From: Lingula anatina | Taxonomy: Eukaryota; Animalia; Brachiopoda | Length of the DNA stretch: 64,000 bases | NCBI GenBank assembly: GCA_051362555.1 | Contig: CM120648.1 | Coordinates: 5,204,587 to 5,268,586 of the forward strand | Direction of reading: 5' to 3' | Part shown: piece after piece, positions 5,929 through 62,402 of the stretch | Layout: each line of letters opens with the position of its first letter | Numbering within the stretch: position 1 is the stretch's first letter | Notes under the pieces: model-generated | Databases searched by the model: none | What the model saw: the letters and a program-made list of their open reading frames with translations, nothing else | Told to the model about the DNA's origin: nothing | Translations under genes and position numbers: made by a program

Positions 5929-5960
<32 letters not shown>

Positions 5961-25405: not shown

Positions 25406-25452
<47 letters not shown>

Positions 25453-28400
25453 AATAATAATCCAGTAAAAAAAGATATTATTTTAAGATGTGTTTTGGTA
25501 TCAAACATAACAATTGAACGTGTAATACGAAAAGCATACATTCTGTACATACCCAAGAAAGAATGAATGCGCTTTTAGCCCAGCCAGCGTGAAGTAACTC
25601 CCTATAATATTGGCAATCAGTCCCAAAAGCAGTATCACAAGCCCGACAACAGGTTTCCTACGTGATCAAATCAAAGACATATCATTAGCCCAAACAGGTG
25701 TTTCATAGCCATTGATTTAATAAATCATATTACATTGGATACACATTGTAATTTTAAGCGCTATAGAAATGAATTACTTTGAATTTTTAAGGGACATAAA
25801 AAAGAAATCTTTGTAAACACGTCATGTTATTTTCAAATCGCATATATAGAGCGCATTCCCAGAGATTTAGATCGATCCAACTTGATCGACCTAACTCCCT
25901 GGGGGTTCACGCTAAATTGCTGTCAGCCGACAGTGCACGGAAGTTAATTACCCCCTTACAGCTTTAAGTAGGCGGGACAGACATTTAAGCCAGCTAAGCT
26001 GACAGTAATCTAGTGAGACTCCCCCCGGGGATAGATCGATCTCAAATCTGTGGAAATGGGGCCTATACATGCATGCATGTGTATGTATACAGCTGTACCT
26101 ACCAGTATAAGGGTAACATGAAAAGTGGCGCCACGATATAAAACTGGATATCGTTGTCTATGTACCAGCACCAAGACATACACTGAAAAGAATGGATTTA
26201 TTTACTAGTAAAATATTAACTTGTACTTTTTCTTTACTTCTTCTAACTGCTAAAATCCTTCAATGGTCTAAATGCTTGTCTGACTAGACCCTACTGGTCT
26301 TCGTGCAAATTTTGAACTGAATTATATAATTAGGAATGGTATTAATCATCTAGTCTAAGAACAAAAACGGCTACGGCGAATGACTGTTGAATAGGTGAAA
26401 TTGATTTTTTTTAGTTAAATTTTATATGGCGCGAAAATCGCATATAGGATACCTTCAATTCCCGTTTGAGTGACAGAAATGAAAAGAGTGTTAATTCCTC
26501 TTATATAATTGAAACCAATTTTTTTAAATAATGATGCATGTAACTAACTTCCTAAATGAAATAAGTGAACATACCGCTTCCTTGGCAAAGACAAAGTTGT
26601 TAATATACAGTATATTTGTCCACCAATTGTTTCGACACTGTTCGGCATCGTACCCCGTTTCCCGCCACAGAGGGCCACGCCCCATGTAGTCCTTCAGGGT
26701 CACGTATATAAACAGTAACATGAAGTAGATGGGCGACAGTCTGAAAATATAAATAACATGTGTGCTAGAGACCAGAGGGCGTACAGCGTAGTATACTCGA
26801 AAGGTTGTAACTCGCGTTTAAGTGTACATTTTCGAGTAAAAATGAAAGCTGGTTTTCTAGCTTGTAAATTACAAACTTTTGGAAATCTGGTCAAAGAGAG
26901 ATTCGCTTACAGATAGGCAGTATCTTGCAGAAAGAACGTTGAAGTAAAGCAAAAGAGAATGATATTTATCAAATTTACATGTAAGGGAAAAGTAGACTTT
27001 CTCATTTAGTCATAAGATATGTAAAATGTGCATTACTTATATTATATTATATTATATTATATTATATTATATTATATTATATATGTACTTACCTCAAATA
27101 TCGGTGGATGTAATAGAGTACCATAGTTTTGCAGCGGACACCGCGCTGTCTTGTTAACTGCTTAAGAAAGAGGTAAGCCACAAGAACACCACTGCAAAAT
27201 AAATAAATAAATAAATAAATAAATACACAAAACATTTTATTATTTTATTGATTGCAATCCTAATGCCTTTAAAAGTAATGTTTAATGGTAATAAAGTTTC
27301 TTAAAATATCTATGTAGTTTTAAACTCTATTTCAATATTACCTTTTTGGACGCAATGAACAATGCATGCTTTAAAAGCAGGTTAAAATAATATCTAAAGC
27401 AGGTAAATGCACACAAAAAATGGCAGAAGAACGGTGTTAATAAGGTCAGAAGTTATCCATCTATGTGGAGAGACAACAAGATTACATTAGTGCCAGACAT
27501 GCAGACAAATAACACACAGATACGCTTGCATATCATAAAGTAACCATGCTACGGCTCACCTCAATAAGAAAAATGAATCCACAGAGAAAAAGGCGTTGGT
27601 GACGGCTATGAAGGAGAACCTCGTTGATTCATCCCATGCAAAAAGTGGATTTGCTGAAAGAGAAAAACAACAGACCAGTAGCGTCAAAATGCTGCCATTT
27701 CAAGGGCGTACATTGATTTCCTCCAACCAGTCGCTTAATTACATACTTTATGTTGAGATGTAAAGTTAAAAAAAGAACATATTCTATATCCCCAAACAAG
27801 AAACGGTGTGTATAAATTAACATGCAGATCGGTTGATCGTTATTTGGAATACACTTGTTTACCTAAATGTTCATCAATAAACTATGACGACAGTGTATGT
27901 CCCTGTCGTTTTATTCTTAAATTTACAGTCGATTTTTCATTTGCAGAACTAAAAAAAGTTACAGTAGCAGTTCCTTCTAACAGCAGCTAATGCAGGGTTT
28001 TCCTTATCCGACATTTCAGTGTCTCACAAGACACCATCATGTGGAATTTATTGTATCCTCTACCCAAGAAGAGCAGTGAATTATTGGAATGGTGATAAAT
28101 ACCATTCTGACTTCGACAGTTGTTTGAAGAAACTAGTAACTTTGAATGCAATTAAAATCGTCTGACCAATACCTGCAAACACGCCGATGGTGGACACCAT
28201 ATACGAGTACGAGTGTCCCAGTACCACCCAGCCTATACTTAGAACTCGTATCCCGTTTAGACAGGTGATTGCACCGCGCCCCTGGTGCGTATCCAGGAGA
28301 CGTGGGAGAGAAGAGTACAGAGAGAAAGAAGTGAGGAGGCGGATTGCCAGTGGCGCTGAAAGTAAAGCAAAAGAAAGCGGTGCTTAAACATATCATTTTA

Positions 28401-31400
28401 CGGGAGAAACTGTCTTTCGTGTGGATTGTACTTAGAAGTTATTGTAGAATTAAATAGATTGACAAATTTGTAATAATTAAGGTATTGTAAAATATCCGCT
28501 TCACCTTTCGGGTCCTTCGAAGTCTTTTGCTGGGCAGACTCCGCAGCTTTGGTTTTTCCGGCGGTGCCATTGGTCTGCATGCTGTGCTTGGTAACATCAC
28601 CGTTAGCTAAACATAGTTAAAAATTAATATAAATATAATCATATAATCAAGGATCTATTTTCGACAGAAAGGTATGTTAAACGGTTTCGCGAATTAAGCA
28701 TAAAAGTACATGTATGGTTTGTTAATAATATCCTACATGTAAGTTTCAGTGTAAAACTGCGACGTTTAAAAAATTTACCTTGTAAATGTAAAGTCACTGA
28801 CAACAATTGTAATTGAAATTGAAAATAGGCCTATTCATTTAAAGAACTACATTAATTTATGACAAATTGAGATAAACTGAATTTCTACTTTTTTACCTTC
28901 CCCGTGTTTCTGTACACCGTTATCAACCACTGTCATTTCTATGTGATTTTCCTCAGAGACGAACGCCTTGTTGTCGTTCCCCACGAGCTCACGCCGCTTG
29001 TTTACCTCGCTTTCATTTGCCTTCTTTGCGTACGCTGTGGTCAATGTTTTATCGATACCGAGACCCTCGAGTAATGTCCCTACCAGTATGACCAGTCCAA
29101 ACACTGACAGGACAGCTCTTTTAGAATAAAATTAATAAAAAGATAAATTATTAGAAAAAAGAAAAATACCTATAGATACAAGTTAACGTATTAAGGAATG
29201 TACCCACAGGTGTATCTGCATTCTTGGTTCGAAAAAAAGAACAATTTTTGAATTAAAGAATTGATAAATGATCACAAGGAAAGACACTGATAAATTGGCA
29301 TGCAATAACTTAATATCTAATGTCATAACTAATGTGACTGGATGTTTTAGCATACTTTTTCCGAAAAAGTAGAACAACTTTAACAATAATATTGCTTTTA
29401 CACTAACACTGCTTTTTCTCCATATTTTCAAGTTCAATAATGTGTCATTCCAAAAAAAAAAAAAAAAAAAGAAGACATTTGAGTCACGTCAGCGACGCTC
29501 GCCTATTCTGTAAAATTGTAATATTTTTAACTTGTCCCATTATTTTTACTGTTTAATACATGTACTTCAGTGCAGTACCATCCACAATAGAAAGAAATCA
29601 CCAGTAAGCAAACCTTGATTTAAAACAGTTATGCAATTATTGCACAAAATATTTTCGTCACTGGCGCGACTGGGTGACTCGCTTTTTTTGGAATGGCCCA
29701 CACAGGTATATTGTATACTGTACATAATGGCGAGTAAGGCGGGGACAGTAGCGACATCTACAGTAAATATCATTATTCTATGATTACTTACATGCAGACT
29801 TGTGCCCTGGTGTCCGTGCTGAGGTCCGGCCTCTTGTCCTGGTCACATACCACCGTGGTCCCAGCCGCGAGATCCTGGGCATTCGTCAGGTTCATCAGTA
29901 CTGAAAAAGAGATACACACAAGAATAAAGTATTAATTATAAAATGAAAGGAAAAAACAACGACCATACGAAAAAAGTATGGAAGTCAGGATATAATAGTA
30001 ATGCCATTTATCCTTTTTATTATTCATTCAATTGTCATATACTGTATATACGAGGACTGGCAGATAATGCGGTCGTGGTATACCCTTGTCACAATAATAA
30101 AACAGCATTCTATTCTATTCTAATATCAGTAGTGGATAAGTAAATGCACCTTTCACAATTTGGTTCACATCCTGAGACGAGCACGAGGCGGGAAGACACA
30201 TCCCCAGAGCTAACTTAACTGTGTCCGCCACGTCACCAACCTGAAACAGGTAACGGACGCTTTATCAACCTATAAATGAACACTGGGATCTATACCCCAA
30301 TGATTTCATAAGAAGAATCAACGCGATAAAGTTCGTAGAAGAAAAAGCGGGTATTGGACCACAATCGTCTTATATTACTATTACCGATAAGTGTTGTCGG
30401 TCCCCTCGAGCTCACGCCGCTTGTTTACCTCGCTTTCATTTGCCTTCTTTGCGTACACTGTGGTCAATGTTTTATCGATACCGAGACCCTCGAGTAATGT
30501 CCCTACCAGTATGACCAGCCCAAACACCGACAGGACAGCTTTATTTTTAAATTTATTAAAACAATAATAATAATAATGAAAAGCAAAAAGAGAAACATTC
30601 ATGTGTACTCATACCTTTTCTTGGCCATCATCAATAGCACCAGCAAACAGAGCAGGCGGTACGGGCATGGACAGCTTGCAGTAGTCGCCATGGAACGAGT
30701 GGTTTCCACCTCCAGTTGGTATGCTGATTTTGGAATTTCTTTGAAAAAAATAGAAGTAAGATGGAAATCTACATTAAGAATGTCTTTAACATCAAATGTC
30801 TAGGGCATTAGAATTGATTTTAATGCATATCCCTGATCAGTTTTTAAATTTTATAGTTTATAGTTTTCTTTTATTTCTGGTGAGGTGGCCCTCAATTACA
30901 AAACCCGATTTATTTTGATACGAACACTCTACCCACTGTCTTTATCTTTATCCCCATTTGGAGCGTCTCGCGTGTTCTTCCGTCTTACTGATAACGAGAA
31001 GATGGACTGAATCACCCTAACAGATAAATCAATCAGTAAAATACGTACGCTATTTTGGCCTCGACTCTCAGACACTGTTCGTATTGCCCAAGCCACTGTG
31101 TGTCACCAAACAGTAAACCAGTGTTGGGTTTCCCGAAGGCGTCCAGCACTGCAAGGCAAAATATTTTACATGTAATATTCTTATTAGAACAGATTTATAG
31201 TTTTAATTGGCTAACATTTTGGGGATGATTGTTAGGGATGGTGATTTATTAAAGCATGCTTTTTAAGCCTCACTCACAAAATGAGGCAAAGGGTGCTCTA
31301 TGACGGGAAAAAACTCAGTGTGCTAGTAAATAAATAAATAAACAAACCGCGCGCGACTTCCACTCTCCCAAGTACTGGCAACATACCAGGCAAGATACAC

Positions 31401-33195
31401 AATATGTATGTAATCTTCTTGACATACTTGAGGTAGCATCAGCAAATAATTGTCAATAATGATAATCATGCGGTGTATTTACCCACAAATGATAAGTGAT
31501 ATCACGGGAATATGGGTGAAATCTGAACAGTAAGCCTTTATCAAAGAGACTACATGTGCACAGCAGTACAACGTTTATTTATCAAACATATCATTGACTG
31601 ACGTTGGTTTCATTGTCAGTTTCTTATACACGTGTCGTATTTTTATATATGCATGTGACAGTTGACGGGTATTTACGCGTGCGCGCGTATATATGTATGT
31701 GTGTGGTAAATGCGTGTGAAGGGGGGGGGATGTAACGCAGGCGAACTCTCACTGCAGGTGTTGGAAACACGAGCAAGTGACACCTGTCGTGTTGATTTTT
31801 GAGGTGTGCCAAAAGATAACGTAAACCTCTGATTAACAACAGTATAAGTAAACCTACATTCCAACAAACGCAAAACGTATTTAAATATTGGCATAAAAAT
31901 GGCTTCGCCATTAGGCGTCTACGAAGATCTCACAGAATCAGCTGCACCCTATGAAATGTTTGTTTTTTCCTCTACGATTATACATGTTCATCAGACAAGC
32001 TGTAATTCGACAGGTTTGTTACTAATATTAAACGCAAATAAAACTTATCACCATTAAATACATCTTAAGTATTATCCTCTACGATTAACTTATTGCCATG
32101 ATAATCATCGCGCCGCGCATACCCGGTATGTTAACCGGTTAAGCACTTGTCACCCTGAAGCTCCCAGCACTGGCAGTGACTCTCCCTTCGCACAATACAC
32201 GCCGGGAGTCGCCGCCCGCAAACCATTTGATCCTAAGGGTGTGGTCGCAGTTGCGGCGCTACAATCTTCACGGGTTCGAAGTCCATTCAATTAAACATTT
32301 AGGTAAGTGAGTTATCGGGGAAGGAGGTCCGTTCCTATCGAATTATTTGCCCAAAACAAACAAGTAACTGATAATTTGTCACGTTCGTAATGTCAGTTAT
32401 TATTAAGTCACCATGAGTCGGTTGCTGGGCCAGGTATAATGGGGTTTTCAGAATGGTTTTATTTGGAGAAAAAAACCGCATGTGGACATGGTGCTGCTAT
32501 GGTGCTTTGAAGTGTTTTGGCATATTTTACACCAAATACAGCCATCTAAAATGACCATACAGCTTTCCTGACACAGAATATAACTAGTTATTTTTCATAT
32601 TTTCTTCGAGAAGTTACTTACTCTGCAGTGCCCAACCTTCTGTCTTTACCAGTCCTTGCAACATGTAGCTAATGTCTATGGCGCAGTACCCCGATATAGG
32701 CTGCAGGACAGCGTTCAGGGCGCTAGGCAGGGCCACTTGTACCAGCGAGTCCCAGTCCACGTTCTGCAGTACCGCCAACGGGTTGCCTCCGCCGGTACCA
32801 GCGCCCGAGGTCAACGACTGAACTAAATCCGCAACCGCTGTCCCCTGGGAGGCTAGTAACGGGATGATTTGTTCTCCAACTTTGGAGACATCGGGGACGG
32901 CGTTGTTAAGAGCTGTGGTGATTTGGTCCGTGTTGTTCAGCTGGGAAACCACAGCCTTGATGATGGCGTCCTTGTAGTTTTGGGCGAAAGCCGGCAATGG
33001 CTGAGGAAGCTGAGAAGTCAGATCGGTCAAGACTTTTCCCAGGTACTCCGGCGAGAGAAGATTCTTCACGACATCTGAATCGAGATATCCTTTCAGAAGA
33101 TCTCCTAGTCCCCGCCCTTGTGCTGAAACGCTGTTGGGGAGCGATGAAAATACCACGACTAAGCTCAGGCAGAAGACGAAATGTTTCGTCTTCAT
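23332..33195 (-). CDS. NRF-6 / OACYL-like protein 1 (signal peptide + NRF domain + acyltransferase-3 multipass domain)
   Basis: 17 exons: 32622-33195, 31049-31148, 30615-30738, 30150-30240, 29792-29900, 28897-29117, 28505-28606, 28173-28355, 27560-27653, 27093-27191, ~26574-26740, 26103-26182, ~25553-25637, ~25156-25273, ~24297-24484, ~23644-23786, 23332-23439. Motifs MLDAFGKP..WLGQYEQC, GMCLPASCS, CLNGIRVLSIGWVVLGH, FSVDSFFLLSG, HRYLRLSP, NWWTNILYINN, PWCRIAPY, PLGRLVYAVYLIH, FEIP. Confidence 0.93.
25849..26064. mobile_element. Degenerate MITE-like inverted repeat in an NRF-6 gene 1 intron
   Basis: cattcccagagatttagatcgatc ... gatcgatctcaaatctgtggaaatg, plus inner arms ttgctgtcagc / gctgacagtaa. 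Confidence 0.55.
30408..30540 (-). pseudogene. Intronic partial copy of NRF-6 gene 1 exon 6 (pseudo-exon)
   Basis: Near-identical to ~28985-29117 (AVLSVFGLVILVGTLLEGLGIDKTLTTxYAKKANESEVNKRREL) but sits between exons 3 and 4 and lacks the AG acceptor (aaataa|AGCTGTC versus ctaaaag|AGCTGTC). Confidence 0.8.
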
Positions 33196-33416
33196 TTTTT
33201 AATGTGAAAAAAGATTTTCAAATAATCACTTGTTGAAAAACTCGGATCCCCCTTCTTAGTGTGCTATTGCCTCCTGTGGTCTGACAGATGGTTTAAATGC
33301 TGATTCAGTGCCAAGGCATTATTTGTTATCTATGTAGAGACTAGTTTGCGGATGCCGCGGCTGAGGTACACGTAACTCCGAGCAGCCGTCAGCTGATGCT
33401 ACACGGCAGTGGCGCA

Positions 33417-34550
33417 CCTGGTGGCGGATAGTAAAACTAATACACACACACACACACACACACACACACGTAGATTCATAAACACCGGAATTACATTGAG
33501 CGGGTATTTTTGTTTCACTCTTTAATTTTACTCGTTAAAAGGGTTCTTTGAAAGATGTAATGTGCACTGGAGTCGCTATAGGTGTCCGTGTGGCCAGTAA
33601 ACGAGAACCGCTGTTGGTGCTGCCCCCTACTGGCGCAGCTGTCACACTACCCCTGTATATAGTGTCTTTGCTTTTTTTATCGAACTGAATCATGAACATT
33701 CAAATAACTGAGCTTTGTGTTAGAGGGTTTATCTTCGTAGTCCCCCCTATCACACCTAATACCAGAAGGTTCTTACCCCGCACTAAAACATGCATTTAAC
33801 TTATTTTTACTTAGGTATTGAGCATGCTTTGCCAACCATATATGGACTTCTTCATGTGGATGTAAAGAACCGATTTTTATTATTATATATCATTAATAAA
33901 ACTCACATGTACAATGGCTTTAAATTCAGTAACAATATCAAATTTGCAAGTGCTAATGCTACTACACAATATTTAAATGCCAAAAAGAATTTGCATAAAA
34001 TCTTACATCTGACAAAAGACAAAAACACTTGTAGGTGCATCTTTTTTACTGTAGATAATGGCAAAAAGGGAATCATAAATGTCACATATTCACTTTAATG
34101 CACTTTAATATAATGTCCTATAGATGACGACCGTGTGTGTGTTACATGTGTATCACACGGAATGAATAACTCAGAAATATTTCGACCTGGATAAGCATTC
34201 TATCAAAGTAGATTTAATGCAGCCAGAGAATGACGATCAGGTTGAAAAAAATACATAACACCCTCACACTTTGCGACCTTGAATACATACGATGGTGGTT
34301 AAACAGTCACAAAGAGCGTAGCAAGTACCTAATAGTCCAGGTCGCTGCAACTTCGAAAGATGCCTCAAAAGTTCGAAAGTAACAATAATTTGCCCAACAA
34401 TGACAAAAACATCACAGCGTAGGTCAACCCTGAAAGTCGTGTCCCCTGTGACGTCCCGCCACCAGGTGTCGCAGGTGTCGTGTAGCGGCAGACGACAGTG
34501 TTGTCATACAGCAGGGAGCTTGTCCAGATGAACTTGGACTGACCCCAAGA
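33417..34550. repeat. Segmental duplication copy 1 (paired with ~36403-37980)
   Basis: cctggtggcggatagtaaaactaat... at 33417 recurs at 36403; 33667-34330 is nearly identical to 37078-37760; copy 2 carries about 470 bp of extra sequence at ~36600-37075. Confidence 0.9.
33619..33636 (-). promoter_or_regulatory. CTCF-like motif
   Basis: Reverse strand reads GCGCCAGTAGGGGGCAGC, matching the CTCF core consensus CCASYAGRKGGCRS; the duplicated copy near 36564-36581 has one core substitution. Confidence 0.4.
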
Positions 34551-36294
34551 AATGGTCCGAGGGTTGATGCCCTCCCCTTCCCGTGGCGCTCGCCCCCACC
34601 CTACCTCTTGGTCCGTGAACTCGGTGGCGGAGACCCAGGTATCGTCCGTAGTGAAATTTTTGGTCCACCTGCAGAGTGAACGGGACAATTATACATGTTC
34701 TTCATATCAATTCTACTAGAAATCAATACACTGAATTGCACAATTACAAATTACATGTATATCAACAAAGAAATATTAATTTATATCACGGAACTACGAA
34801 ATAGTATAAATAGAGAAGGGTTGTAGAAAGGAAACGAGATGAATGAGAAAAAATAAAATAAAGAAGTAAGAAAAAGGGTTACTAGGAAGAAGGGACGAAA
34901 GAACGACTTTTCAGTTTTCAAGTAATCGCATCAATAGTGAATATATCTATATATGTATTCTAACATTAAGTATATAAACAAGATTTGAATTCAGAAAAGC
35001 ACCGACAGAATTGTTTTTCAGATATCCTATTAATCACATTATCAGACAGTAAATATTTTGAAGATATCAACAGCATCAAATAACCCTAAGAAAAGTTCCT
35101 TTAGTCCAGCTTTACGTTCACCGAGGCAGTATACCGATACATTGTGTAATAAGTGAGAGGAGGATAGGAGTATCGTACCAGTTGTCTGGCATGGTGAAGT
35201 GCTCGCCACGGCAAATGGTCCAAGGTTTCGGCCCCGAGGTACAGTTCAGGTCTATTGGACCCCTGAAGAACGTCTTACATTTCCACGCTGAGCTGGTCAC
35301 CGTGCCTTAAGATAAAATATATTGTTTAAAACTCTTAGATTAAGTTTATACGAGTACAAATTACTGCGATAACTGTACATGTATGTCAATCTAGTACGAC
35401 ATGTAGCATTTTAACTGTGGGTGCCTGTTAGAATTATAGACAGCATATACAGGTCCCACAGCGGAGGGTACACAATGCAACAGTTAATATCTATTTACTC
35501 CTGTTTATACAAGAGATCCCACATTTCATATCTAAACTTATCTCACTCTTTACTGGCCTAGTTCACTTCTGTATACTACATCTCGGGTCAGGCGAAGATA
35601 GCAGTTTCTCTCCAGTGTGACGAGATTCCGTACACACAGTTGTACATTATACTCTTGTATTCAAAAAAGCTGAAGTTGCTATATGTATATATGTAAAAAA
35701 CAATATCATTCTCGCCGCGGTAGGGAGGGGCATTGAGTAGGCCTAGACCTATTTACGGCTGATACACGCGGTAACATGAAGTAACAACGGAGAATGCTTC
35801 GATATTATATAAGGTTTAATATTAGTGTAGACCCCAACAAACAGATAAATAAATAAATAAACAAATAGATAAACAAATAAATAAATAGATAAGTAAATCC
35901 ACAGGAATTATTGTCTTTGTGGCCTAAGCCGCCCTAACACCCTCTGTTCCAGATTCCAAAACTCGAGACCACGCTCACCGTCATCAAGGACCATCCTTAG
36001 CCCGCCGTCTCCAACTTGGGTGTCATTGTACTCCAGAGTTGTCAGGTTGTCCGCGTTGTCCGCTGCCCAAATGGCGAACACGTTCTCTCCGCCATCCCCC
36101 ACGTCGAAGCTGACGGCGGTGGCGGTCTGGGGTTTAAACAGTGTGTCGTCTGCTATGAATCCCCCGTTTACGTACAGTTTAAAATAGTTGTCGACATATA
36201 CGTGACCAGAAACGGTTTTAGTTTCTGAGAAATTCACTCCCACTATTGCCAAATAAATAAATAGAATTTGGGCCTCTGTTCTCAGAACAGGCAT
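34365..36294 (-). CDS. Uncharacterised secreted, probably GPI-anchored acidic protein, array copy A
   Basis: Exons 35979-36294 (ATG MPVLRT.., hydrophobic signal peptide), 35179-35305 (127 nt), 34365-34668; phases 1 and 2 join in frame. VSGHVYVDNYFKLYVNG..WAADNAD..LEY..VGDGG..GTVTSSAWKCK..SWGQSKFIWTSSLLYDNTVVCRY, followed by a T/P/G spacer and hydrophobic tail. Confidence 0.88.
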
Positions 36295-36370
36295 GATTTC
36301 TGTCGTCTTCCTGTCATGCACGGTGTTTTACTCTGATTTGATTCACTGGCTAGGCATTAAAAATTATCTA

Positions 36371-36389
36371 ATTTGCATGAGTGACGTCA
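36371..36389. promoter_or_regulatory. Octamer + CRE module upstream of copy A
   Basis: ATTTGCATgagTGACGTCA about 80 bp upstream of the ATG; conserved upstream of copies B and C. Confidence 0.5.
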
Positions 36390-37797
36390 GCTCACGGGAC
36401 AGCCTGGTGGCGGATAGTAAAACTAATCTATATTCATTAACACCGGAATTACATTATTGTTTCACTTTTTAATTTTACTCATTAAAATGTTTTTTTGAAA
36501 GATGTAGTGTTTATTGGCGTCGCTAGGTGTCCGTGTCGCCAGTAATCGAGAACTGCTGTTGGTGCTGCCCCCTACTAGCGCCGCTGTCACACCGCCCCCG
36601 TTAGTGTGTTCCCAACTCGTGCGTTTGATGGAACGTACCTTATGGTTCTAGTTTGACTGATATTTTGTGTGTACAACGAGAAATCTGAGTTTGGTATTTG
36701 ACATCACGGCGGTGGCAATGTTTCTTTTCCTAAGTACTTTGAAGGTTTTCCGACAACCCTAATAATAATAATAATAATAATAATATGCCCTAGATTTGCC
36801 TGCGTTTTGTTTTGTATTGTATTGTTTTAAAATTTTGTCTTTGAATTCTTTTCTTGGAAGGAGGGGTCTGCAGATGCTAAGCCGACCTCCCCCACCCCCA
36901 TTTTGGTATTTTAGAGGGCGAACGGTGCCATTTGGTACGGTTTAGAACTATGATTCGGCTTGTCAAAATTATAATTTCAAGAGGAGACGAGAAAACGAAG
37001 GGTGGGGGTGGGGGGTCAGGACCCCCCTGACTCCCTCTTAATTCGCCACTGGGTTGAAGGTATCCCTGATGCCCAGTTTTGCTTTTTTATCGAACTGAAT
37101 CATAAACATTCAAATAACTGAGCTTTGTGTTAGAGGGTTTATCTTCGTAGTCCCCCCTATCACACCTAATACCAGAAGGTTCTTACCCCGCACTAAAACA
37201 TGCATTTAAAGTATTTTACTTAGGTATTCAGCATGCTTTGCCAACCATATATGGACTTCTTCATGTAGATGTAAAGAACCGATTTTTATTATTATATATC
37301 ATTAATAAAACTCACATGTACAATGGCTTAAAATTCAGTAACAATATCAAATATCCAAGTGCTAAAGCTACTACAGAATATTTAAATGTCAAAAAGAATT
37401 TCAATAAAACCTTATATCTGAAAAGACAAAAACACTTGTAGGTGCATCTTTTTTTACTGTAGATAATGGCAAAAAGGGAATCATAAATGTCACATATTCA
37501 CTTTAATGCACTTTAATATAATGTCCTATAGATGACGACCGTGTGTGTGTTACATGTGTATCACACGGAATGAATAACTCAGCAATATTTCGACCTGGAA
37601 AAGCATTCTATCAGAGTTGATTTAATGCAGTTAGAGAATTCCGGTCAGGTTGAAGTATATATTTAAAAAAAAAAAAAAAAAAAATTACATCCTCACACTT
37701 TGCGCCTTTGAAAACATACAATGGTGATTAAATGGTTCAACCGTCACAAAGAGCGTAGTACCTAATTGTTCAGGTCATTGCCACCTCAAACGCTGTC

Positions 37798-38758
37798 CTA
37801 AAACTCGGAGTTAAAATAATTGCTCAACAATGAGAAAAACATCACAGCGTAGGTCAACCCTGAAAGTCGTGTCCCAAGTGACGTCCCGCCACCAGGTGTC
37901 GCAGGTGTCGTGTATCGGCAGACGACAGTGTTGTCATACAGCAGGGAGCTTGTCCAGATGAACTTGGACTGACCCCAAGAGATGGTCTGAGGGTTTCTCC
38001 CTTCCCCTTCCTGGGGCGGAACCCCCCAACCCACCACGTCGTCCGTGAACTCAGTGGCGGAGACCCAGGTATCGTCGGTGGTGAAATTTTTGGTCCACCT
38101 GCGGAGTGAAACGGAAATATGTACGGTTCAGTAGAATGAATTCGAATAAATTATTACCTAAAGCACCTGAAGTTACACATGGATAACGTGGTTATATGGA
38201 ACACAGTCTCTAAACTAAAAATTGTTGAATAAGGAAAAAAAAAGGACGTGGAAAAAGAACAGTGACTGAATGATGGGAACGAAAAAACTTCAGATATCAA
38301 AACAATCTGACTGACAGTTTATCATACTCCGAAGATTTATTGCCTATCATTTAAGAAATCATCAGGAAGATTGGCTAAATACAGTTAAATGTTCAACTGA
38401 AAGGGTAGGGAAGAAGTAACGAGTCCATTGCCAGTTATCTGGCTGGGTGAAGTACTCTGATACTGTTCAAATAACCCCAAGAAAATTCCCCATAGGTCAG
38501 TTTTATTAACGTTCACCAAGGCAGTGTACCAAATATGAGGAGGAGATTAAATATTGTACCAATTATCTGGCATGGTGAAGTGCTCGCCACGGCAAGTGGT
38601 CCAAGGTTTCGGCCCCGAGGTACAGTTCAGGTCTATTGGACCCCTGAAGAACGTCTTGCATTTCCACGCTGAGCTGGTAACCGTGCCTTAACATAAAATA
38701 TATTGTTTAAACTCTCGGATTAAGTTTATACGAGTAATAATAATAATAATAATAATAA

Positions 38759-38789
<31 letters not shown>

Positions 38790-40049
38790 AATGTCCATTT
38801 AATACGAACAAATTTCAAGGTGGTGCATCAGGGGAATTAGACTGGACTACAGCTGACGCCAGACAATACGACTGACCTACCCTCTACCAGGGCGACTGAT
38901 AGATTTTTACGGATATTCACAGATATGTCTCTAGCTAGATGGATTGTCATTTTCAACTGACTTACGTTTAAGTCGGTCCTCTCTGCTTTCAAATTCCACC
39001 GGGCTTACAAAAAAGAAGCCATGTCATTGGACAATGCGACCTCTGCGGTTACGTCACTTCAAAAACTGGATGGTAGAGAGGGCCGACTTAAACGTCAAGG
39101 TGGGAATTTGGATTTACGGTTTGATTGTGCGTATGCCATGCACGGAATTTACAAACGAGTGACGGGATGCTGTAGCTTGCAGTATTTGCAGTAAGCGTGC
39201 CAAGTTTTAGGCCGCTCCGATGCCTGTCAGTATTTTATTTCGATTATTATGTTTAAAATTGTGGAATCTTGTTTCACAAGCTTACTCTATTTTATTGTCT
39301 CTATGGAGGTATATGGGGACTTTACGACATTCGGCTTGAAGGCTTAAACCACTTGTTATAGTTTACTTTTGCATTGTATTGGATTAATGTGGCAGTTCAA
39401 GGTTGTCCTAGGTGGTTTTCAAGTTTATGCACCCGGTTTTAATATCATTTAGCGATTTTACGACAATCGTTTACTATCCAATCAAGGTGACAGCCGAGCG
39501 TGGACTGACCTAGCATTTTGTACGTAAAATAAGAAAAAATGCTATGACATGGAGGTATGGTAATTAAGGCCAAGCTAACCCCTACCCTTTGCACAGCTGT
39601 ACCCTTTCGCAAGCCAAACAAAAAACAAACAAATAAATTAATATACAGTAAGTACAAAGTTGCGCGACCCTCCCGTTCAGTCGCGCTTCAAACCTCGACT
39701 CTGTACCACATTAACTGGCCTCCGGCACGCACTCACCGTCATCAAGGACGACCCGTATCCCGCCGTCCCCGACTTGAGTATTATTGTGCTCCAGAGCAGT
39801 TAGGTTGTCAGCGTAATCCGCCGCCCAGATGGCGAACACGTTCCCTCCGCCATCATCCACGTCGAAGCTTACTGCAATGGCGACGTGCGGCTTCATAAGC
39901 GTGTCTTCTGCGATGAATTCTCCATTCACGTAAAAGCGAAAATAGTTGTCGACGTATACGTGTCCAGAGACGGTTTTAGCCTCTGAGGTAGACAGCCCCA
40001 CATGTATTAGGATAATACTAAATAGAACCACTTTCGTAAATAGGCGCAT
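37798..40049 (-). CDS. Uncharacterised secreted, probably GPI-anchored acidic protein, array copy B
   Basis: Exons 39737-40049 (MRLFTKVVLFSIILIHVGLSTSEA signal peptide), 38560-38686 (127 nt), 37798-38098; same intron positions and phases as copy A. Confidence 0.88.
38735..38790. repeat. Compound microsatellite (TAA)n(GAA)n
   Basis: Seen directly; located where copy B intron 1 stops resembling copies A and C. Confidence 0.9.
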
Positions 40050-40130
40050 TCTTCCCGTCTCCACACGCTCGTTTATTTCACTATATGTCAAGTCAAAGTC
40101 TAGGCACAAGAAAAGCCCACTTGGATGCTC

Positions 40131-40149
40131 ATTTGCATGAGAGACGTAA
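40131..40149. promoter_or_regulatory. Octamer + degenerate CRE upstream of copy B
   Basis: ATTTGCATgagaGACGTaa about 80 bp upstream of the ATG in an otherwise diverged flank. Confidence 0.45.
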
Positions 40150-40209
40150 TCTCGTCACAGCCAACCATATTTTGTATAAAATATAACAATGTAAATATTT
40201 AATACATTT

Positions 40210-40376
40210 CAGGCACCTGGCAAGAGGGGGGTTCAAGGGTTCGAAAGAAACCCCCTTTTTGTTGGAGAAAGGTCCAATCTAGGTAAATTTTATCCAGGTA
40301 AACGTGGGTTTCACGAAATAAAGGCCTACATTTTCCGAAAAAGAATCCCCTTTTTCAATTGCTGGCTACGGGCCTG
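40210..40376. mobile_element. Short MITE-like element
   Basis: Imperfect terminal inverted repeats caggcacctggcaag / ctggctacgggcctg with internal gggggttc..gaaaccccc hairpin repeats. Confidence 0.45.
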
Positions 40377-41303
40377 CATCTTGTATTGGAATATCCATTT
40401 CAAAATAACTATAATTTAGGTGTTGTTCCGCCCCATTTAATGCGTGGTAGCTGCAATTTTGATGTAAATGATAGATGACACTGACCACTTGATTCCACAC
40501 TGCATGCATATATATACATATACTACCAGTACTACAGTAGCAGACAAAAGGGGAACATACAGTTGACACAATAGTGTCCTTTGTATGCTCTCCGCGTTTA
40601 TGACAGCGTTTTAACAAATGGATTTTGAAAATCTAAGGCATTTACTCCAGTTTTTTTCTCTTATATGAAAATTATAATATATTTGAAGTTATCAACTTAA
40701 AGCACATGTATTATTCAGTTTTCTTAAAATAAGACGTACCGGTATATGTGAGCTCCACATTTATTTACCAAACTAAGTGAAGGCTAAGTTTTTTCTAGGT
40801 TTTCGTAGATTTTCTCCCTTAATGACGTAGGTAATCGTTTTGATATACAAGACAATTCTGCGTAATTTCTTTATTCCTGCCTTTTATTTTCTGGTTAGAC
40901 AAGTACATGTACATGTATATATGAGGCTGACATTGTGCTAGACTTATTTACTTGGTTTTTGTCGTTGGTCCGAACCACATTTTTATAAAGATGCTTATTC
41001 GTGACAACAATAAACAAATATTATGAGTAGAAAGTAACTGCAGCCGTTCACGCCACCGACTCATGTTTGGTCCACTGCCTGCTGTCCAGTCTGTTACACA
41101 AGCGCAAACCAATACACAATGGAGTACAGGTATACTAGCTCCCATAAAGTATGCGCACATGCACATAGGGACACACGCAAATGAGCCATCTCAAAAACGT
41201 GCGCAAGTGAAAACGGACACACAACAGCTGTGAAATGAATCCCTCAGTCGTCTTGGTATAGTGTCTGTGCACAGTAGATGAAATCTGTACTAGAAGTCAA
41301 AAT

Positions 41304-42769
41304 TTAAAATAATTTGCTCAACAATGACAAAAACATCACAGCGTAGGTCAACCCTGAAAGTCGTGTCCTTTGTGACGTCCCGTCCCCAGTTGTCGCAGGT
41401 GTCGTGTATCGACAAATGACAGTGTTGTCATACAGCAGGGAGCTTGTCCAGATGAACTTGGACTGACCCCAAGATATAGTCCGAGGGTTGATGCCCTCCC
41501 CTTCCTGTGGTGCTCGCCCCCACCCTACCTCTTGGTCCGTGAACTCGGTGGCGGAGACCCAGGTATCGTCCGCAGTGAAATTTTTGGTCCACCTGCGGAG
41601 TGAAGGGGAGAATTATACTTCACATCAACTCTGCTAGAAATTAATACACTGAATTGCACAATTAAAAATTACATGTACATCAACAAATAAAGATTAATTT
41701 ATAACACAGAGGAACTACAAAATAGTATAAAATAAAGAAGGGTTGTAGAAAAGAAACAAGATGAACGAGAAAAACAGAATAAGGAAGAAAGAAAAAGGGT
41801 AACTAGGAAGAAGGATTTTTCAGTTTTCAAGTAATCGTATCCATAGTGAATATACCTGGGCATAAGACAGTTTCATATATATTGCTTCTAACATTAAGCA
41901 TATGAAAAACATTTGGACTCAGACAAGCATCGACAGAGTTGTTTTTCAGTTATCCTGTTAATCAAATTGTCAGCTAGTAAATATTTTAAAGATATGTAAC
42001 ACCATTCGGATACTTTCCAAATACCCCTAAAATGTCCCTATAGTCCAGCTTAACGTTCACCGAGGCAGTATACCGATACCTTGTGTAATAAGTGAGAGGA
42101 GGATAGGAGTATCGTACCAGTTTTCTGGCATGGTGAAGTGCTCGCCACGGCAAGTGGTCCAAGGTTTCGGGCCCGAGGCACAGTTCAGGTCTATTGGACC
42201 CCTGAAGAACGTCTTACATTTCCACGCTGAGCTGGTAACCGTGCCTTAACATAAAATATATTGTTGAAAACTCTTGGATTAAGTTTATACGAGTACAAAT
42301 TATTACGATTACTGTAGGGGAGACCGGGGCTAGTTGGACCCCGGGGTAAGTTGGCCCCCCGTCAAGTCTCTTTAATAAAGTTACTTTAAGATGCTAAATT
42401 ATTTCATTTGGACTCACTGCCGACGCTTTCTTAGCACTATTGGATACGGTCACTTTACAAAATGATGTAATCTCACTCTTTACGGGACTACATTTAGTTC
42501 ACCTCTGCATACTATATCTTAGGTCAGGCGATGATGCCAATTTCTCTCTAGCGTAACGAGATTCAGTATATACAGTTGTACAGTACATTGAACTCTTGCA
42601 TTCAACGAGGCTGGAGTTGATATATGTATATGTAAAAAACATTATCACATTCCTCGCGTTAGGTAGGGGCATGAAGTAGACCTATCTACGGCTGACACAT
42701 GTCAAATAGGTAACAACGGAGAATGCTTCGATATAAAGTTCAATTTTTAAAAGTCTAGAGCCCATCGAA

Positions 42770-42812
<43 letters not shown>

Positions 42813-43194
42813 GAATAACTGTCGTTGTGACCTAAGCCGCCCTTCCCCCTCTGTTCCAAAACTCGGGACCACGCTCACCGTCATCAAGGATCATTCTTAG
42901 CCCGCCGTCTCCCACTTGGGTGTCATTGTACTCCAGAGTTGTCAGGTTATCCGCGTTGTCCGCTGCCCAAATGGCGAACACGTTCTCTCCGCCATCCTCC
43001 ACCTCGAAGTTGACGGCGGTGGCGGTATGGGGAATAAACAGAGTGTCGTCTGCTATGAATCCCCCGTTTACGTACAGTTTAAAATAGTTGTCGACGTATA
43101 CGTGACCAGAAACGGTTTTAGTTTCTGAGAAATTCACTCCCACTAGTGCCAAATAAATTAATAGAATTGCAGTCACTGTTCTCAGAACAGGCAT
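41304..43194 (-). CDS. Uncharacterised secreted, probably GPI-anchored acidic protein, array copy C
   Basis: Exons 42879-43194, 42118-42244 (127 nt), 41304-41592 (stop TAA 41304-41306); same structure as A and B. The last two exons are absent from the ORF track. Confidence 0.88.
42313..42465. mobile_element. DNA transposon end fragment in copy C intron 1
   Basis: tgtaggggagaccggggctagttggaccccggggtaagttggccccc (TIR-like with subterminal repeats) begins exactly where C departs from the paralogous intron of copy A. Confidence 0.45.
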
Positions 43195-44535: not shown

Positions 44536-46100
44536 TTATTTCTTTAACAATATCTTCTCCACACCGAGCATGGGAACCTCGAAAAGGAGAGAGGCGACCA
44601 GACCGGCCACATAGGATAGGACCAGGAAGGCAGTAAAAAAGATCGTCTGAAATGGTAAAAATAGATACTTTCAAGGTTTGCCATCATGATGAAATTAACT
44701 AGACTTTTGTTCCGTTTTATAAACAAGTACTGCATTATAGTTACAGGTACATGTATGTCACATTTTACACTGTATGGAATATCTATAGAAAATGAATTAA
44801 TGTGAAGCTATACCCAGATGCAGGAGGATTTAACACCAAATTCCGTACAACGCCTGCACCATGAGCCTTTTTTGTCTCCTTTCCAATGTTCGCTTCACTG
44901 CTTACATCTTCGGTTATTTCCGTCAATCTTCGGACTCACCTGACTGAAGTCGGACACAGTGATGTTGGTGGTCCGGCCGCCCCACACGTAGACGACCTGG
45001 ATGTAACTATGGACGAGGTAGACTGCATACGTCAGACGACCCAATGGTACCCATGGTGACCAGGACAAGATGGTGTTGATGAAACCTTGAAAATTCAAGC
45101 GGTAGTTTTACTTCTAAAATTGTCTAAATGTTTAAATCGACATGATATCACGCACGTGCAAGCGCGCACGCACGCGCACGCACACAAACACAAAGATAGA
45201 TAGACATAGGGCCAGATAGCCAATAAGACAGGGACACAGACAGGGGCATGTAAAACAGACAGATAGAGAAAGATGACTGGTCAACCGACTGCCAGACAGC
45301 GAGGCAGACAAGTACATGTACTAGTACCCTACCTCCGTATCCCGTGGCACAGGCCACTATGATCCACCCCAGGGCCGCTGCCCACAAGGGCTTGGTGACC
45401 ACGGTGTAAGCAATATTGGGTTCCAGCTCCCAGTAACCGTTCTTCACTTCATCATATTTCACATACACTATTACGGTGACTAGACTTAGAGACAGGAACC
45501 AACCCAGGGCAACAACGGCCTGAAAACAGTTTAAAAATAATATTATCTAAAAAAAATACTGATTAAGATAGTAAATATAATGTTTAGGTTAAGAACCAGA
45601 AAGTACTTTTAAATTTTGCACGTCATGACGCATATTCTGTACAATGGCGTCAAAATGACGTCAGAAGTCTAGTAGGCTACGAGCTGTCCCACCAGGCACG
45701 TGCAAACGCGATACCTTATTGCTCTTACCTTATGCATTTTCAGCTTTAGGTCAGTTTTGTACAGTATATATCCCACCACGAGCCCCACTAGGTACGGACC
45801 CACGCGGCACCAGGGAAGCATGTAGTAGTCAGTTAAAAACTTCCTCCTGGAATTCGAGAATTAGTTAAGCCTCATACAGCATTCAATAAAGCAACATATC
45901 AGACCTGGAGATTATTTATTTATTGATTCCCTGGCGAGAGTTTATTTACTCAAAATGAAAATAGAAAAGATGCATGAACAGGTTGATGGTGAAGTAAATT
46001 TATTTTGAAGCAGTTGCATTTAAAGCTACAATTTTACTAAAAACAGAGCTTATGCCACACTTTTTTTACCAAATAGGTTAATAGATACTGACATTACAAA

Positions 46101-46135
<35 letters not shown>

Positions 46136-49100
46136 AATTGAATACATAAAATCAGTTAATTAATAAAAAATAGAAAATAAATTTAAAGATTAGAAAAGCA
46201 CGCCTCTTAGCGCAGACTATCTCCAAGGAGACTCCATTTTCCTCTTCACATAATTACTTATTAACCAAAAATTAGATAAAGATGAGATTATACACTATCA
46301 ACTGATTGAAATGCGAAAGAGCACATTGAGCGTCAGCGGGAGGTGTTCAAGACATAAATCACGATAGGATGGCAGCGTATTATTTTTCGCATTTTCCCCA
46401 CAAAAATATGTTTTTATTTCATACTAGGCCACCTATTACTAGCGATTGCCCCCCTCTCCTTCTTGAGTACCGTGGGTCAGACTGCACACAAACACGCGCG
46501 CACACGCACGCACACGCACGCATATATTACTTACTCACTGAAATCCCCGCCTTTATACAAAGCATCTAACGCATACCCGCCGGCCAGTCCATTTGCTACC
46601 AACCCAACGACAACAAAAATAACACCAACTACTGGTTTCCTAGAAATAAAGAAATGTATTTTTACATTCTATCGATCTATCTACGCTTTGATATTGTGGC
46701 AACATTTTTCAATTACACTGTAGCAGTATATCGTATGTCATTGAAACTATAACCAAATAGGGAGTAAGGAAAAAAATAATCAGAAACTGCAAGGTTATAC
46801 GTCTGTGAAAGTAAAATAAAAGGTGAATTTAATCAAATGTGAAGACCTGTTCCAGAAAAACGCAGAATAAAGATATGGACTTTTTTTGTTCCATTTCCAT
46901 TGCTATTCAATGTCCTTTGACATACATAATACTGAGAACATAATTACATGTACAAGATAGGCCTACATATAATCAGCACACTACTTAAAATTAGGTCACA
47001 TAAATTGTAAAATCACTCCTTATTTGAATTCTTATACTCATGGTGGATTTACCTATAATTCATTAAGAAAAGCGTTATATGAACCGGTCTCTACTCACCA
47101 GAACAGTGGCAATATAAACAGCGGCGCAATCACGTAGAACTGGAAGTCGTTGGCCACATACCAACTAATGGGGAAACACTGCATAGAAATATTAACTTTA
47201 TGTATAGTATTTAATATTTAGTATAAATTTATAGTTTTATTGCTGCATACATGTATCTTGTATAGCATCCTTAGCAACTGGCGACGAATATAGACCCTAC
47301 ATAGGCCTATAAAACTAGAAAAGCACTCCGAGAGCGCAGACCTTATTATTGATTGATTATTGATCCGGATCACCACCAAAAACTAACCCTCTATTCCTTG
47401 GCCCACTTCTGACAGTTTCTGAAAACTTCATTAAAATCGGTCCATAACTTTTTGAGTTATGTTGATGACAAACAAACAAACAGACAAACAGGGGTGAAAA
47501 CATAACCTCCTTTGCGGAGGTAATAACATCAGGATATGTCACAGGATATATCATCACGAAGATGATGAACCGATCTTCCTTATATTGTGACGCTGTACAT
47601 ACACGTATAAAATACAAACGCTGTAGACTTAACAAAAGTGCATCCAATTAGGACACATTTTTTATTCAGGCGGTAGGTGAAATCCCGACTGTTTTTGAAC
47701 ACTGAAAAATGATCCCAACCGTCTATGGTCTAAATTTGTGTCATGATTGGTTGATTTAATTTTTTTAATGTTTCATTGATCTCCACACAAAACAACTGAA
47801 AATTGATTAGTTGGACTACATGCAGACACACGGGTCGCGGCGGACAAGGTTGTACAACGAAACATACAAATCAAAGAAACGGATTTAATTCTTACCATGT
47901 TCTCGGGACGAACAATGTTATTGACGTATAAGATATTGGTCCACCAGTTTTCACTACAAGCCGGGTCTTTGAAGGGGTACGTGAGTGGCCATAGAGGACC
48001 ACTTCCCATGTACGGCATCAGGGCAACAGAGGAAAACAACAGCATGAAATACAGCGGGGAAAGCCTAAAAGATTACAAAAATTACACGTTATTTTTGTTT
48101 ATACGTTAAAGAGATTTTGGAAACATTGGCATTTTAGTTACTGTTATTTTTCATTGTCGTAAATTAAAAAAATGTAAATCACTTATAAATAGTGAGCTAA
48201 TACCTTGTGTATCGATGCACATAATACATCACCATGGACTTCACGTGAGGGCCCTTTTCTCTGCGTAACTGCCGCAGGAATAAGTAGGCTACCAACACAC
48301 CGCTAAAATAAACCACATAGCATCGGTTTATTAGACGGATAATAATTAACAGGAGTCAACTGCCAAGAGAAGGGTTCTAAGGTAGACTATCCGCGTTTGA
48401 AAAAAAAGTTCCAAAGTCATATATATAACATGTACCCTACAAATAAAAGCGAGACTAATATACAGTGCATGAGCTTGTATTATAAACACGTTAAAGGAAA
48501 AAAATGAACATAACTTCATAAACGTATATATATTCAAAGGGGATTGAGCATTGATTCAAAGCAACGGTTTCAATTAGGAAAAGACACTAGTGCTCCATAC
48601 CTGAGAAGAAAGAACGTATCCACGGAGTAAACGGCATTAGTGATTGCTTGGAACGAGAAATCCTCGGTTTTCTTCATAGCACCAAGAAGATTACCTGCAA
48701 AACGGACATAGTAGGGTGTATTAACTTTTCTACAAAGCTTAAATAAATTGTACTCCAAAGAGTCATGAAAAATATGTATACAAGGATAGGCCATGTGACT
48801 CATTTTAAAGTTTTCAGAGAATAGGCCTAAGCAACGATCGACGTATTGTACAATAGGAGCTACAATCGAATCTTCCGTACACCAATAGGTGAGGTATAAA
48901 AACAACTCTTGCTCCCTTTTCACATAGAAATATTTACAGCAGTTGGGTATTGGAAAAAAAAGCCTGTACGCCCTCTATCTATTATCTTCCTACCAGTAGA
49001 TACAGGTATATCCCTATAAATATAGAGTGACGCTCAAGCAAAGCAAATTAAGAAATGGATGAGGATGGGCGATCAATTGTACCCTAGCTTTCTTTAACAA

Positions 49101-50959
49101 CTGGATTCCAGGTGAAAACTCTTCCTAGGTTCACTAGTGAGAGTATAATACTTACTCATGTTCCCCCTGAGCGTGGAATACGTGTGTCCCAGAACAATCC
49201 AGGCCATGCTCATTACCCGGATGCCGTTGATACACGTAATGGCGGCGCTTCCTTGGTGGGTACTTAGCAACCGGGGCAGAGTCGTGTACAGAGAGAAGGC
49301 AGTGAGGAGACGTATAGCGGTTGGCGCTGAAGGAAAATGTTGATATTTAAAATATTTTGAGGCAATTTGTTAGCCTACCAGCATAAACCAGTATACAGGT
49401 GAGGTCACATTAGAGCGTCTGCCACCTTCGTTCTGTCATATACGCATTTTGATCATCATCGTTTTGCTCAAATAACCATGCAGTGGGAAAAGCAAATACT
49501 CGTTTCCCTTTTTGTTTCTTGTCTTAATGATCCATAAAATTTTGGAATAAATATATAAGGTGTTTAACACTGAGTTTGAGGACCAAAATCTCTCTTGAGT
49601 TCTGGAAACTAGGATGAATTTAGGACCCATTATGGAAATAAAGAAGAAAAGAAACGAATAATTAATGTACCTTCTGCCTTTTTCGGGTTTTCTAAAGAGA
49701 TCGGGGCATTGTCGGTGTTGGCCGCTATATTATTCAGTTTCAATGTCTCTTTCTCTTTGCTCTCCGTTGCCATCATTTTGTCCAGTCCAAAACCTTCCAA
49801 CAGAGTCCCCGTGAGCACGGCCATGCCAAACACCATAAGTAGACAGCTGCACAACGAAACAAAGGTATACAGAATATAAGGGAGATAAGAAAATAGGGAT
49901 AGAATATTTTTAAAAATGAGATACGTTGGGGTCTTGCGCAATGTGGGCGTACCCAGCAGAGTATAATTAAAGGCTGTGGCGCACACTACAAACGCAGCAC
50001 GGACTAGGTAATTCCTATCACTATTCTAACACATATCCATCCAGATGTTCAAAAAATGTAAGACAATATTTTTATTTATTTATTAAAAACAGAATAGAAA
50101 ATGTCCGTGTTTAAATTCTGTCTACTTAATGTCGGTGCTGCACCGAACTCGCTAGTGGGACAATATTTCTGACTACTCGCTCTTCCAAACCCCGCAGTAT
50201 CTCGTTTGATGTTAAGCTACATGTAAGTCACGAGACTTAATGTGGCCTATCTCAGACGCTTCTCACGAAACGCTTGACAGTACAGGTACTAATACATACA
50301 TGCAAGCTATGGCTGTAGGATCACTAGACAGGTGTTGGACTTTATCTTTCTCACACACTGCGCGTGTCTTCAGCTGCGACATTATTTCTGTAAGGAAAGG
50401 ACGTTTACAGAGGTGTTGACAGGCGCAGGCAAAAGGCTTGGCAAAATTGAAAACTTTAGTCTTAAAGTTTCGGCTAACTTGCATACAAAGGTTTGTTTTT
50501 GCAACTGACCCGTGTTCTTAGTAACAATACAGTACGACCCCAGTACAATACCGCTAAGACGCACGTTTTAACATGGCCGTCAAGTCGCCGGAAGTGCACG
50601 TGCTTGGAAGACACGTCCCGAGGGAAATCTCCATTGACCCGCCAGTGGCACCAGTCATCTGGAATAGATGGTCATCTGTTACATCTGGAATATATACTGT
50701 AGGTGGATATCTTTTATAATACATCAATGGATTACACGAAGCAAAAGCATTATTTGGCGGGGATTCTAGCTCGGCAATGATTCCAGTTAGACAGTGATCC
50801 CATTTGGGCAATAATTTGAGTTAAATAATGATTCAAGTTGGGCAATATTAATTTAGGGTTTATTTATTGGTATGGATGTCATAAAGGGAACGCTTTAGAG
50901 CTTAATGTCAAGTCAGTTATTCACGGTAAATGCTATACAGCCATACATTGCCCTCCAAA

Positions 50960-51006
<47 letters not shown>

Positions 51007-51431: not shown

Positions 51432-51464
<33 letters not shown>

Positions 51465-56198: not shown

Positions 56199-56237
<39 letters not shown>

Positions 56238-61564: not shown

Positions 61565-61596
<32 letters not shown>

Positions 61597-62320: not shown

Positions 62321-62402
<82 letters not shown>

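Follow-up and report, generated by a model that had tools for sequence, protein, structure and literature searches.

Three tandem genes of the brachiopod Lingula anatina code for predicted GPI-anchored, CBM67-like surface lectins of a probably old and patchy eukaryotic subfamily

Described CBM67-like proteins and the Lingula gene array

In the accessible part of PMC4690510 the carbohydrate-binding module CBM67 is described as calcium-dependent and rhamnose-binding, and the available sections of PMC11512411 assign the calcium and sugar site of POL-type domains to a conserved adjacent Asp pair together with a Pro or Val 54 residues later. For tandem-repeat CBM67-like lectins, the accessible table of a 2024 review lists archaea, bacteria, oomycetes and fungi, whereas animals are absent from it (PMC11186620). 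Here we describe three tandem paralogues, termed C, B and A, on the minus strand of a 64,000-nucleotide stretch of the genome of Lingula anatina (Brachiopoda; assembly GCA_051362555.1, contig CM120648.1, positions 5,204,587 to 5,268,586; referred to as the window). We consider it probable that these genes are members of an old, patchy eukaryotic subfamily of CBM67-like domains, that their products are predicted glycosylphosphatidylinositol (GPI)-anchored, Ca2+-dependent surface lectins and that they were recently duplicated. No publication was found on LOC106169244, nor one that, judged by its title or the beginning of its abstract, describes the family; the supplements of the Lingula genome and shell proteome could list the gene. 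More distant CBM67-like domains occur in invertebrate proteins, and the single-domain Lingula genes would be an animal case of CBM67-like lectins.

With CBM67/Bac_rhamnosid_N the Lingula domain shares a predicted beta-jelly-roll, an ADN/VDN motif at the aligned place and the use as an extracellular module. However, it is 21% identical and lies under the Pfam threshold of PF08531, it is longer, at about 190 residues, and has additional invariant acids as well as loops that carry Cys, and the Lingula protein is stand-alone, with a signal peptide and a predicted GPI tail but without the GH78 catalytic barrel. The CBM67-like fungal lectins POL and Shictin (6T0Q, 6KBJ) are alike in the predicted fold and in their free-standing, secreted use in a eukaryote, and the adjacent acidic/amide pair that the accessible text of PMC11512411 places at the calcium site of POL is present in the Lingula domain as well. 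POL consists of two tandem domains, whereas the Lingula proteins have one domain in 243-248 amino acids plus a membrane tail. The identity of the Lingula proteins to POL is 16-23%, well below the 30-40% to bacterial members of their own family. Because the Lingula protein fails the Pfam threshold, is without a GH78 partner and has one domain, it is CBM67/POL-like by prediction and no formal member of either group. A protein of different fold is instructive with respect to the history of the genes. According to the accessible text of PMC11878542, MSP130 is likewise bacteria-like, of GPI type, tandemly expanded and patchy, and its shared introns argue for one old origin; it differs from the Lingula family in its unrelated fold (a seven-bladed barrel), in being widespread in named bilaterians and, within the same text, in having no intron position in common with non-animal eukaryotes. 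MSP130 is thus the closest precedent for reasoning from shared introns.

The first-pass annotation of the window had described three intact paralogues with identical three-exon structure, and this description stands: spliced, C, B and A give open frames of 243, 246 and 248 amino acids, with introns at the same codons, GT-AG boundaries and phases 1 and 2. All copies contain 4 Cys, 9 Trp and 4-5 N-glycosylation sequons, and the hydrophobic ends noted earlier were found in each of them, with 15-residue Kyte-Doolittle maxima of 2.0-2.5 for the N-terminal and 1.6-2.1 for the C-terminal stretch. As judged by hydropathy and by eye, the order of N-terminal signal, small-residue omega region, spacer and terminal hydrophobic stretch corresponds to a GPI-type pattern; no cytosolic tail follows the terminal stretch, and the model described below has terminal helices. 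The term 'Asp-rich' was an overstatement, since Asp makes up about 7% of the residues. The sequence motifs listed before are present, but some vary between the copies (B with YVDNYFRFYVNG and LEH, C with DNTVICR). Pairwise identity among the copies amounts to 80-91%, and the ratio of nonsynonymous to synonymous substitution rates (dN/dS; 187 domain codons) is 0.17-0.26. The three genes are thus under purifying selection. Their GC content at third codon positions (0.59-0.63) lies inside the range of six neighbouring exons (0.45-0.63).

RNA reads of four runs were used to analyze transcription; 6-26% of each run was examined, and read depth was low (<6). The predicted exon junctions were borne out for gene C, where reads skipped the 525-nt intron in three of the four runs (1, 3 and 2 reads) and the 634-nt intron in one of them (4 reads), in both cases with the predicted ends. 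With C alone as target and 85% likeness, exon reads were present in all four runs, and the three apparently stranded runs match the minus strand. With the whole array as target and 93% likeness (6-25% of each run), exon coverage was obtained on C only, in one of the four runs; for A and B the exon depth was zero in all four. Reads of the runs X6 and X8 differ at many sites from all three copies and therefore come from other alleles or copies. The annotated Lingula anatina protein XP_013404102.1 (P0001), whose gene lies on a 497-kb contig, matches A with 98% identity in 179 aligned columns. As the protein database holds this single, A-like Lingula copy, copy number may vary.

Predicted fold and binding site

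An AlphaFold2 model was calculated from an alignment of 114 rows (A7). It has a mean pLDDT of 81.7 and contains a beta domain between two terminal helices. In a comparison with 48,161 chains by VIA-align, rank 1 was the CBM67 of the Streptomyces avermitilis rhamnosidase SaRha78A (3w5n, residues 167-299; Z 10.6, root-mean-square deviation 2.8, 119 aligned residues) and rank 2 was POL (6kbj, Z 10.3). Four more GH78 rhamnosidases came next (Z 9.8-5.9), and from rank 9 on Z was under 5. Foldseek likewise placed POL in all of its top five positions. In the Atlas, P0001 matches clusters of bacterial hypothetical proteins by structure (TM about 0.7), and for the relative P0002 a fungal lectin cluster was found, with PF08531 as the nearest named family (0.87, a lead only). 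The domain is accordingly predicted to have a jelly-roll fold of the CBM67/POL type, in agreement with the calcium- or carbohydrate-binding-like jelly-roll proposed earlier. When the PDB was searched by sequence with this protein alone, only chance matches were obtained.

D35-N36, D50, D79, E88, D96 and N204 are invariant in all 114 rows of A7. D35-N36 aligns with Asp179-Asn180 of 3w5m (ADN 178-180), with a weak, non-significant profile score. We take D79 and the GDGG loop to be the stand-ins for the CBM67 ligands Asn228 and Pro233. From the model and these residues we infer that the protein is a GPI-tethered Ca2+-dependent lectin. Its signal peptide would direct it into the secretory pathway, where the hydrophobic tail would be exchanged for a GPI anchor; Ca2+ would be held by D35-N36, aided by D79 and the GDGG loop, and would form the bridge to hydroxyl groups of the sugar, in the manner of CBM67 and POL. 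As a consequence, microbial, algal or mucus glycans could be bound at an epithelial surface. The extra invariant acids may form a second metal site or have a catalytic role.

Relatives and evolutionary origin

Bacterial homologues had been expected in Alphaproteobacteria and Planctomycetes, and they were found there as well as in other bacteria. The best match, on the Planctomycetaceae contig L005, is 40% identical (E 1e-34), and five plasmid records match at 29-33%. In the scan of a genome collection, 561 of 601 pattern matches were relatives, and about 720 such stretches are estimated in all. The family is rare, with matches in 9 of 300 sampled genomes of Planctomycetota (the phylum of L006) and in 4 of 400 of Pseudomonadota (the phylum of L060), centre genomes being excluded in both cases. 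Among 30 sampled bacterial loci, from which three large neighbours were left out, a YHYH domain is fused or encoded among the nearest open reading frames in 10, and sulfatases are neighbours in 5. Bacterial proteins that are annotated as 'PEBP family protein' or as hypothetical and are encoded in YHYH-YbhB/YbcL gene clusters (for example WP_254249130.1 and QIE43310.1) belong to the same sequence family, with 29-40% identity and common invariant residues; unlike the Lingula proteins, they are without the GWG insertion described below and without the hydrophobic tail. We rejected the name 'PEBP family protein' as a guide to function: PF01161 (PBP) matches none of the 114 domain rows, its matches falling in neighbours and fusions, and it is from PBP domains next to or fused with the present one that the annotation derives. 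Recurrent clustering or fusion of the domain with YHYH, YbhB/YbcL, Lcl_C and sulfatases, often in secreted proteins, was seen at L003, L004, L006, L011, L041, L058, L075 and L084. These associations suggest an uncharacterised extracellular system. The accessible text of PMC8793217 makes no mention of YHYH.

The best non-Lingula matches of a word-based search were the plankton proteins P0002 and P0003 (43-44% identity), whose contigs measure about 1 kb. Like the Lingula proteins, both carry a GWG-x-P insertion towards the end of the domain; they have no C-terminal tail. The sequence nearest to the Lingula pair is P0137 (45% identity). A full profile search yielded 580 clusters at E values up to 0.001, and the insertion pattern is present in 39 of the 148 new clusters listed (at 50% identity), a count that is approximate, as P0212 and P0233 look false and a few true members, among them P0140, P0141 and P0147, were missed. 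Both hydrophobic ends, that is signal peptide and tail, are present in 10 of these 39 cluster representatives. The insertion was found in none of 84 genome and plasmid domains, none of 118 Planctomycete-type matches and none of 10 further bacterial genome loci; six apparent motifs in Planctomycete-type proteins proved to be false pattern matches on inspection. Viral contigs (five scans) and phage records contained no relative. In 5 of 12 scanned relatives (P0152, P0177, P0203, P0208 and P0264, all of eukaryote type) the domain stands in front of a tyrosinase, and these fusions fall on at least two branches of a quick tree.

Two metagenome contigs, L085 and L086, carry intron-containing relatives. 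The L085 intron comprises 672 nt with GT-AG boundaries, and L086 has one complete intron of 798 nt and a second donor. In both contigs a phase-1 GT donor splits the Gly codon of xDG after its first base, exactly at the site of Lingula intron 1; the rough chance of such a coincidence is 3e-5 if sites are uniform and 4e-3 if G|G sites only are considered. Lingula intron 2 is absent from L085, which is continuous across the site; a second L085 intron, assumed on first reading, was dropped, a frameshift or collapsed stretch being located there. The L085 intron is largely a 27-bp minisatellite (positions 322-935, 22.8 copies) built from the exon end and the splice donor. Minisatellite-type introns of this sort are known from copepods.

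Trees were calculated unrooted from subsets of rows chosen for diversity. The eukaryote-type rows form one side of a branch with support 96/93 in the tree of 71 rows, 99/96 with 35 rows (without L086), 97/88 with 44 rows (23 diverse insertion-type against 21 bacterial-type) and 96/91 with the insertion columns removed. The Lingula genes nest in no bacterial clade with support in four careful trees, and within the eukaryote-type group of the 44-row tree they have no supported sister. A grouping of Lingula with the Planctomycete-type proteins alone was rejected by the approximately unbiased (AU) test using all columns (p 0.010). The sister of the eukaryote-type group was the Planctomycete-type at 86/60 in the 35-row tree, with eukaryotes plus Alphaproteobacteria (p 0.107) and eukaryotes plus a long-form group (p 0.354) as alternatives. 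On these alignments, Planctomycete-type, alphaproteobacterial and other bacterial sisters cannot be told apart.

Since the nearest relatives are eukaryotic and have one intron in common with Lingula, an old eukaryotic family is likely rather than a fresh bacterial import. Its history would be a single old exchange between bacteria and eukaryotes in either direction (the unrooted trees do not show which), followed by mostly vertical descent with many losses. A number of results speak against the reading as an old eukaryotic subfamily of CBM67-like lectins. With respect to the fold, the Foldseek E-values are weak (0.01-0.04, TM about 0.3), Pfam and NCBIfam name no family for P0001, and PF08531 is matched by only 1 of 114 family members (E 0.0078). 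Behind the FxPH loop the Lingula copies have Thr or Val where the 113 other rows of A7 all have Asn, which may alter specificity; eukaryote-type relatives also vary at this position (N/Q/E). With respect to origin, the insertion group requires two changes in the quick 75-row tree, the deep nodes of which are weak, and the AU test gives p 0.076 without the insertion columns. The shared intron is present in L086 with its donor side, the acceptor lying off the contig. A taxon label was obtained for 2 of 10 clusters looked up, namely Bolivina argentea (Foraminifera) and Pyramimonas (Chlorophyta, transcriptome), such transcriptome labels being able to reflect prey or contaminants; one further cluster is a 'hypothetical protein' and seven are without a name. 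The P0151 frames are open over their full length on contigs of 0.37-1.8 Mb, and some eukaryote-type clusters could therefore be bacterial. Finally, database searches returned no other named animal relative beyond Lingula anatina XP_013404102.1, and with Lingula as the sole named animal vertical descent needs many losses.

This last circumstance would be accounted for if an undescribed Ca-dependent surface lectin family went back to early eukaryotes and the brachiopod acquired an intron-bearing copy from a protist, taken up with food or from a symbiont, and then expanded it. We regard this as rather unlikely, even though a foraminiferan and a green alga account for the named relatives and a transfer at the DNA level would bring the shared intron along: in the careful tree no sister of the Lingula pair gains support, P0137 being nearest with only 45% identity, no viral carrier was found in the five viral-contig scans or the phage collection, and some of the relatives without names may be animals. 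We somewhat favour vertical descent with losses over transfer from a protist. The first-pass annotation had instead proposed that a bacterial gene entered this lineage and afterwards gained both introns and the GPI signal. A direct transfer from a marine Planctomycete or alphaproteobacterium could be invoked for the 40% identity to the L005 protein, the many bacterial relatives in the genome collection, the absence of intron 2 from L085 and the missing tail of P0002 and P0003. We nevertheless judge it very improbable, as it needs the same insertion and the same intron site to have been gained independently in other eukaryotes. Furthermore, the eukaryote-type rows stay together in every careful tree, the AU test disfavours it with all columns, though less so without the insertion, and the eukaryote-type clade is nearest to Lingula. 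Gain of both introns and the GPI signal within this lineage is likewise not supported, given the intron 1 site in two other eukaryotic contigs and the ten clusters with both hydrophobic ends.

Regarding function, the domain could instead act on behalf of a partner enzyme, as a catalytic or metal-binding module, or the protein could be a Ca2+-handling surface protein in shell formation similar to MSP130, which, as stated in the accessible text of PMC11878542, is GPI-anchored, Ca-binding, probably transferred and present in Lingula. The six invariant acidic residues (D50, E88 and D105 being extra) and the YHYH, sulfatase and tyrosinase associations would fit such roles. We give them limited credence, because the best structural matches are non-catalytic sugar-binding domains and because the changing partners (YHYH, PBP, sulfatase, tyrosinase, secretion tails) fit an accessory binding module. 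Bacterial contamination or an assembly artefact deserves practically no credence. Nothing beyond the likeness to bacterial proteins points to it; the spliceosomal introns of C are removed in RNA reads, intron-rich genes of SLC13, pyridoxal-decarboxylase and NRF-6 type flank the array, as had been argued before, the annotated orthologue has its own large contig, and copies at this level of divergence are not collapsed alleles.

The prediction of a CBM67-like lectin provides a fold and a testable function for a family without Pfam model that spans few bacteria and a wide but patchy set of eukaryotes. The locus also calls for caution in transfer screens: a search confined to named databases shows Lingula and bacteria only, from which a high alien index would result, whereas plankton sequences without names and the shared intron overturn the reading of a lineage-specific transfer. 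If, on the other hand, transfer from a protist were true, this would be a eukaryote-to-animal transfer dated by a shared intron that gave an animal a glycan sensor of CBM67 type.

Feature coordinates and neighbouring genes

The coordinates of the array are compiled in Table 1. Copy A appears to be a mosaic of C and B, because its exon 1 is C-like, the later part of its exon 3 is more B-like and about 1 kb is common with B. The array would have arisen by tandem duplication, and A by unequal crossing-over or gene conversion; a recent triplication is the best reading.

Table 1. Positions of the array features within the window
Feature	Position	Strand	Evidence or remark
Gene C overall	43194-41304	minus	spliced coding sequence, 243 aa
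Gene B overall	40049-37798	minus	spliced coding sequence, 246 aa
Gene A overall	36294-34365	minus	spliced coding sequence, 248 aa
Gene C exon 1 (signal peptide, first domain half, D35-N36, D79, GDGG)	42879..43194	minus	sequence, RNA depth and junction
Gene C intron 1, 634 nt, GT-AG, phase 1 in Gly of DDG	42245..42878	minus	sequence, RNA; site common to L085, L086
Gene C exon 2, 127 nt, three of four Cys	42118..42244	minus	sequence, RNA
Gene C intron 2, 525 nt, GT-AG, phase 2	41593..42117	minus	sequence, RNA; L085 continuous here
Gene C exon 3, coding part with stop (contains the GWG insertion, the end of the domain and the predicted GPI signal)	41304..41592	minus	sequence, RNA
Gene C 3' untranslated region, approximate end	40874..41303	minus	read coverage
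Gene B exon 1	39737..40049	minus	sequence
Gene B exon 2	38560..38686	minus	sequence
Gene B exon 3, coding part	37798..38098	minus	sequence
Gene A exon 1 (55 informative sites agree with C, 6 with B)	35979..36294	minus	sequence comparison
Gene A exon 2	35179..35305	minus	sequence
Gene A exon 3, coding (first half C-like, second half more B-like)	34365..34668	minus	sequence comparison
A exon 3 and ~700 nt of 3' flank, trace of tandem duplication	33667..34683		89% identical to 37078-38114 (B exon 3 and flank)

At window position 41309, five reads of run X4 leave gene C approximately at the stop codon and run into unlike sequence, which suggests another allele or an unplaced fourth copy. Repeat insertions are located in intron 1 of B (38765-39817), between A and B (36659-37009) and in intron 1 of C (42315-42472); many RNA reads that originate at other genomic sites match them in part.

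Two ordinary animal genes lie upstream on the plus strand (2900-8200 and 13050-22080), for an SLC13-type transporter and for a pyridoxal-dependent amino-acid decarboxylase. The array itself is embedded in a tandem cluster of several NRF-6/O-acyltransferase-like genes on the minus strand (23300-33200, 45100-53000 and 55700-63100), a call that rests on repeated exon translations and one weak PF20146 match. Two of the NRF-6-like genes have long single N-terminal exons (32614-33198 and 52092-53018) with no significant Pfam match. In one NRF-6-like gene an exon-sized stretch is duplicated at 97% identity (28969-29117 and 30392-30540), possibly representing a duplicated or alternative exon.

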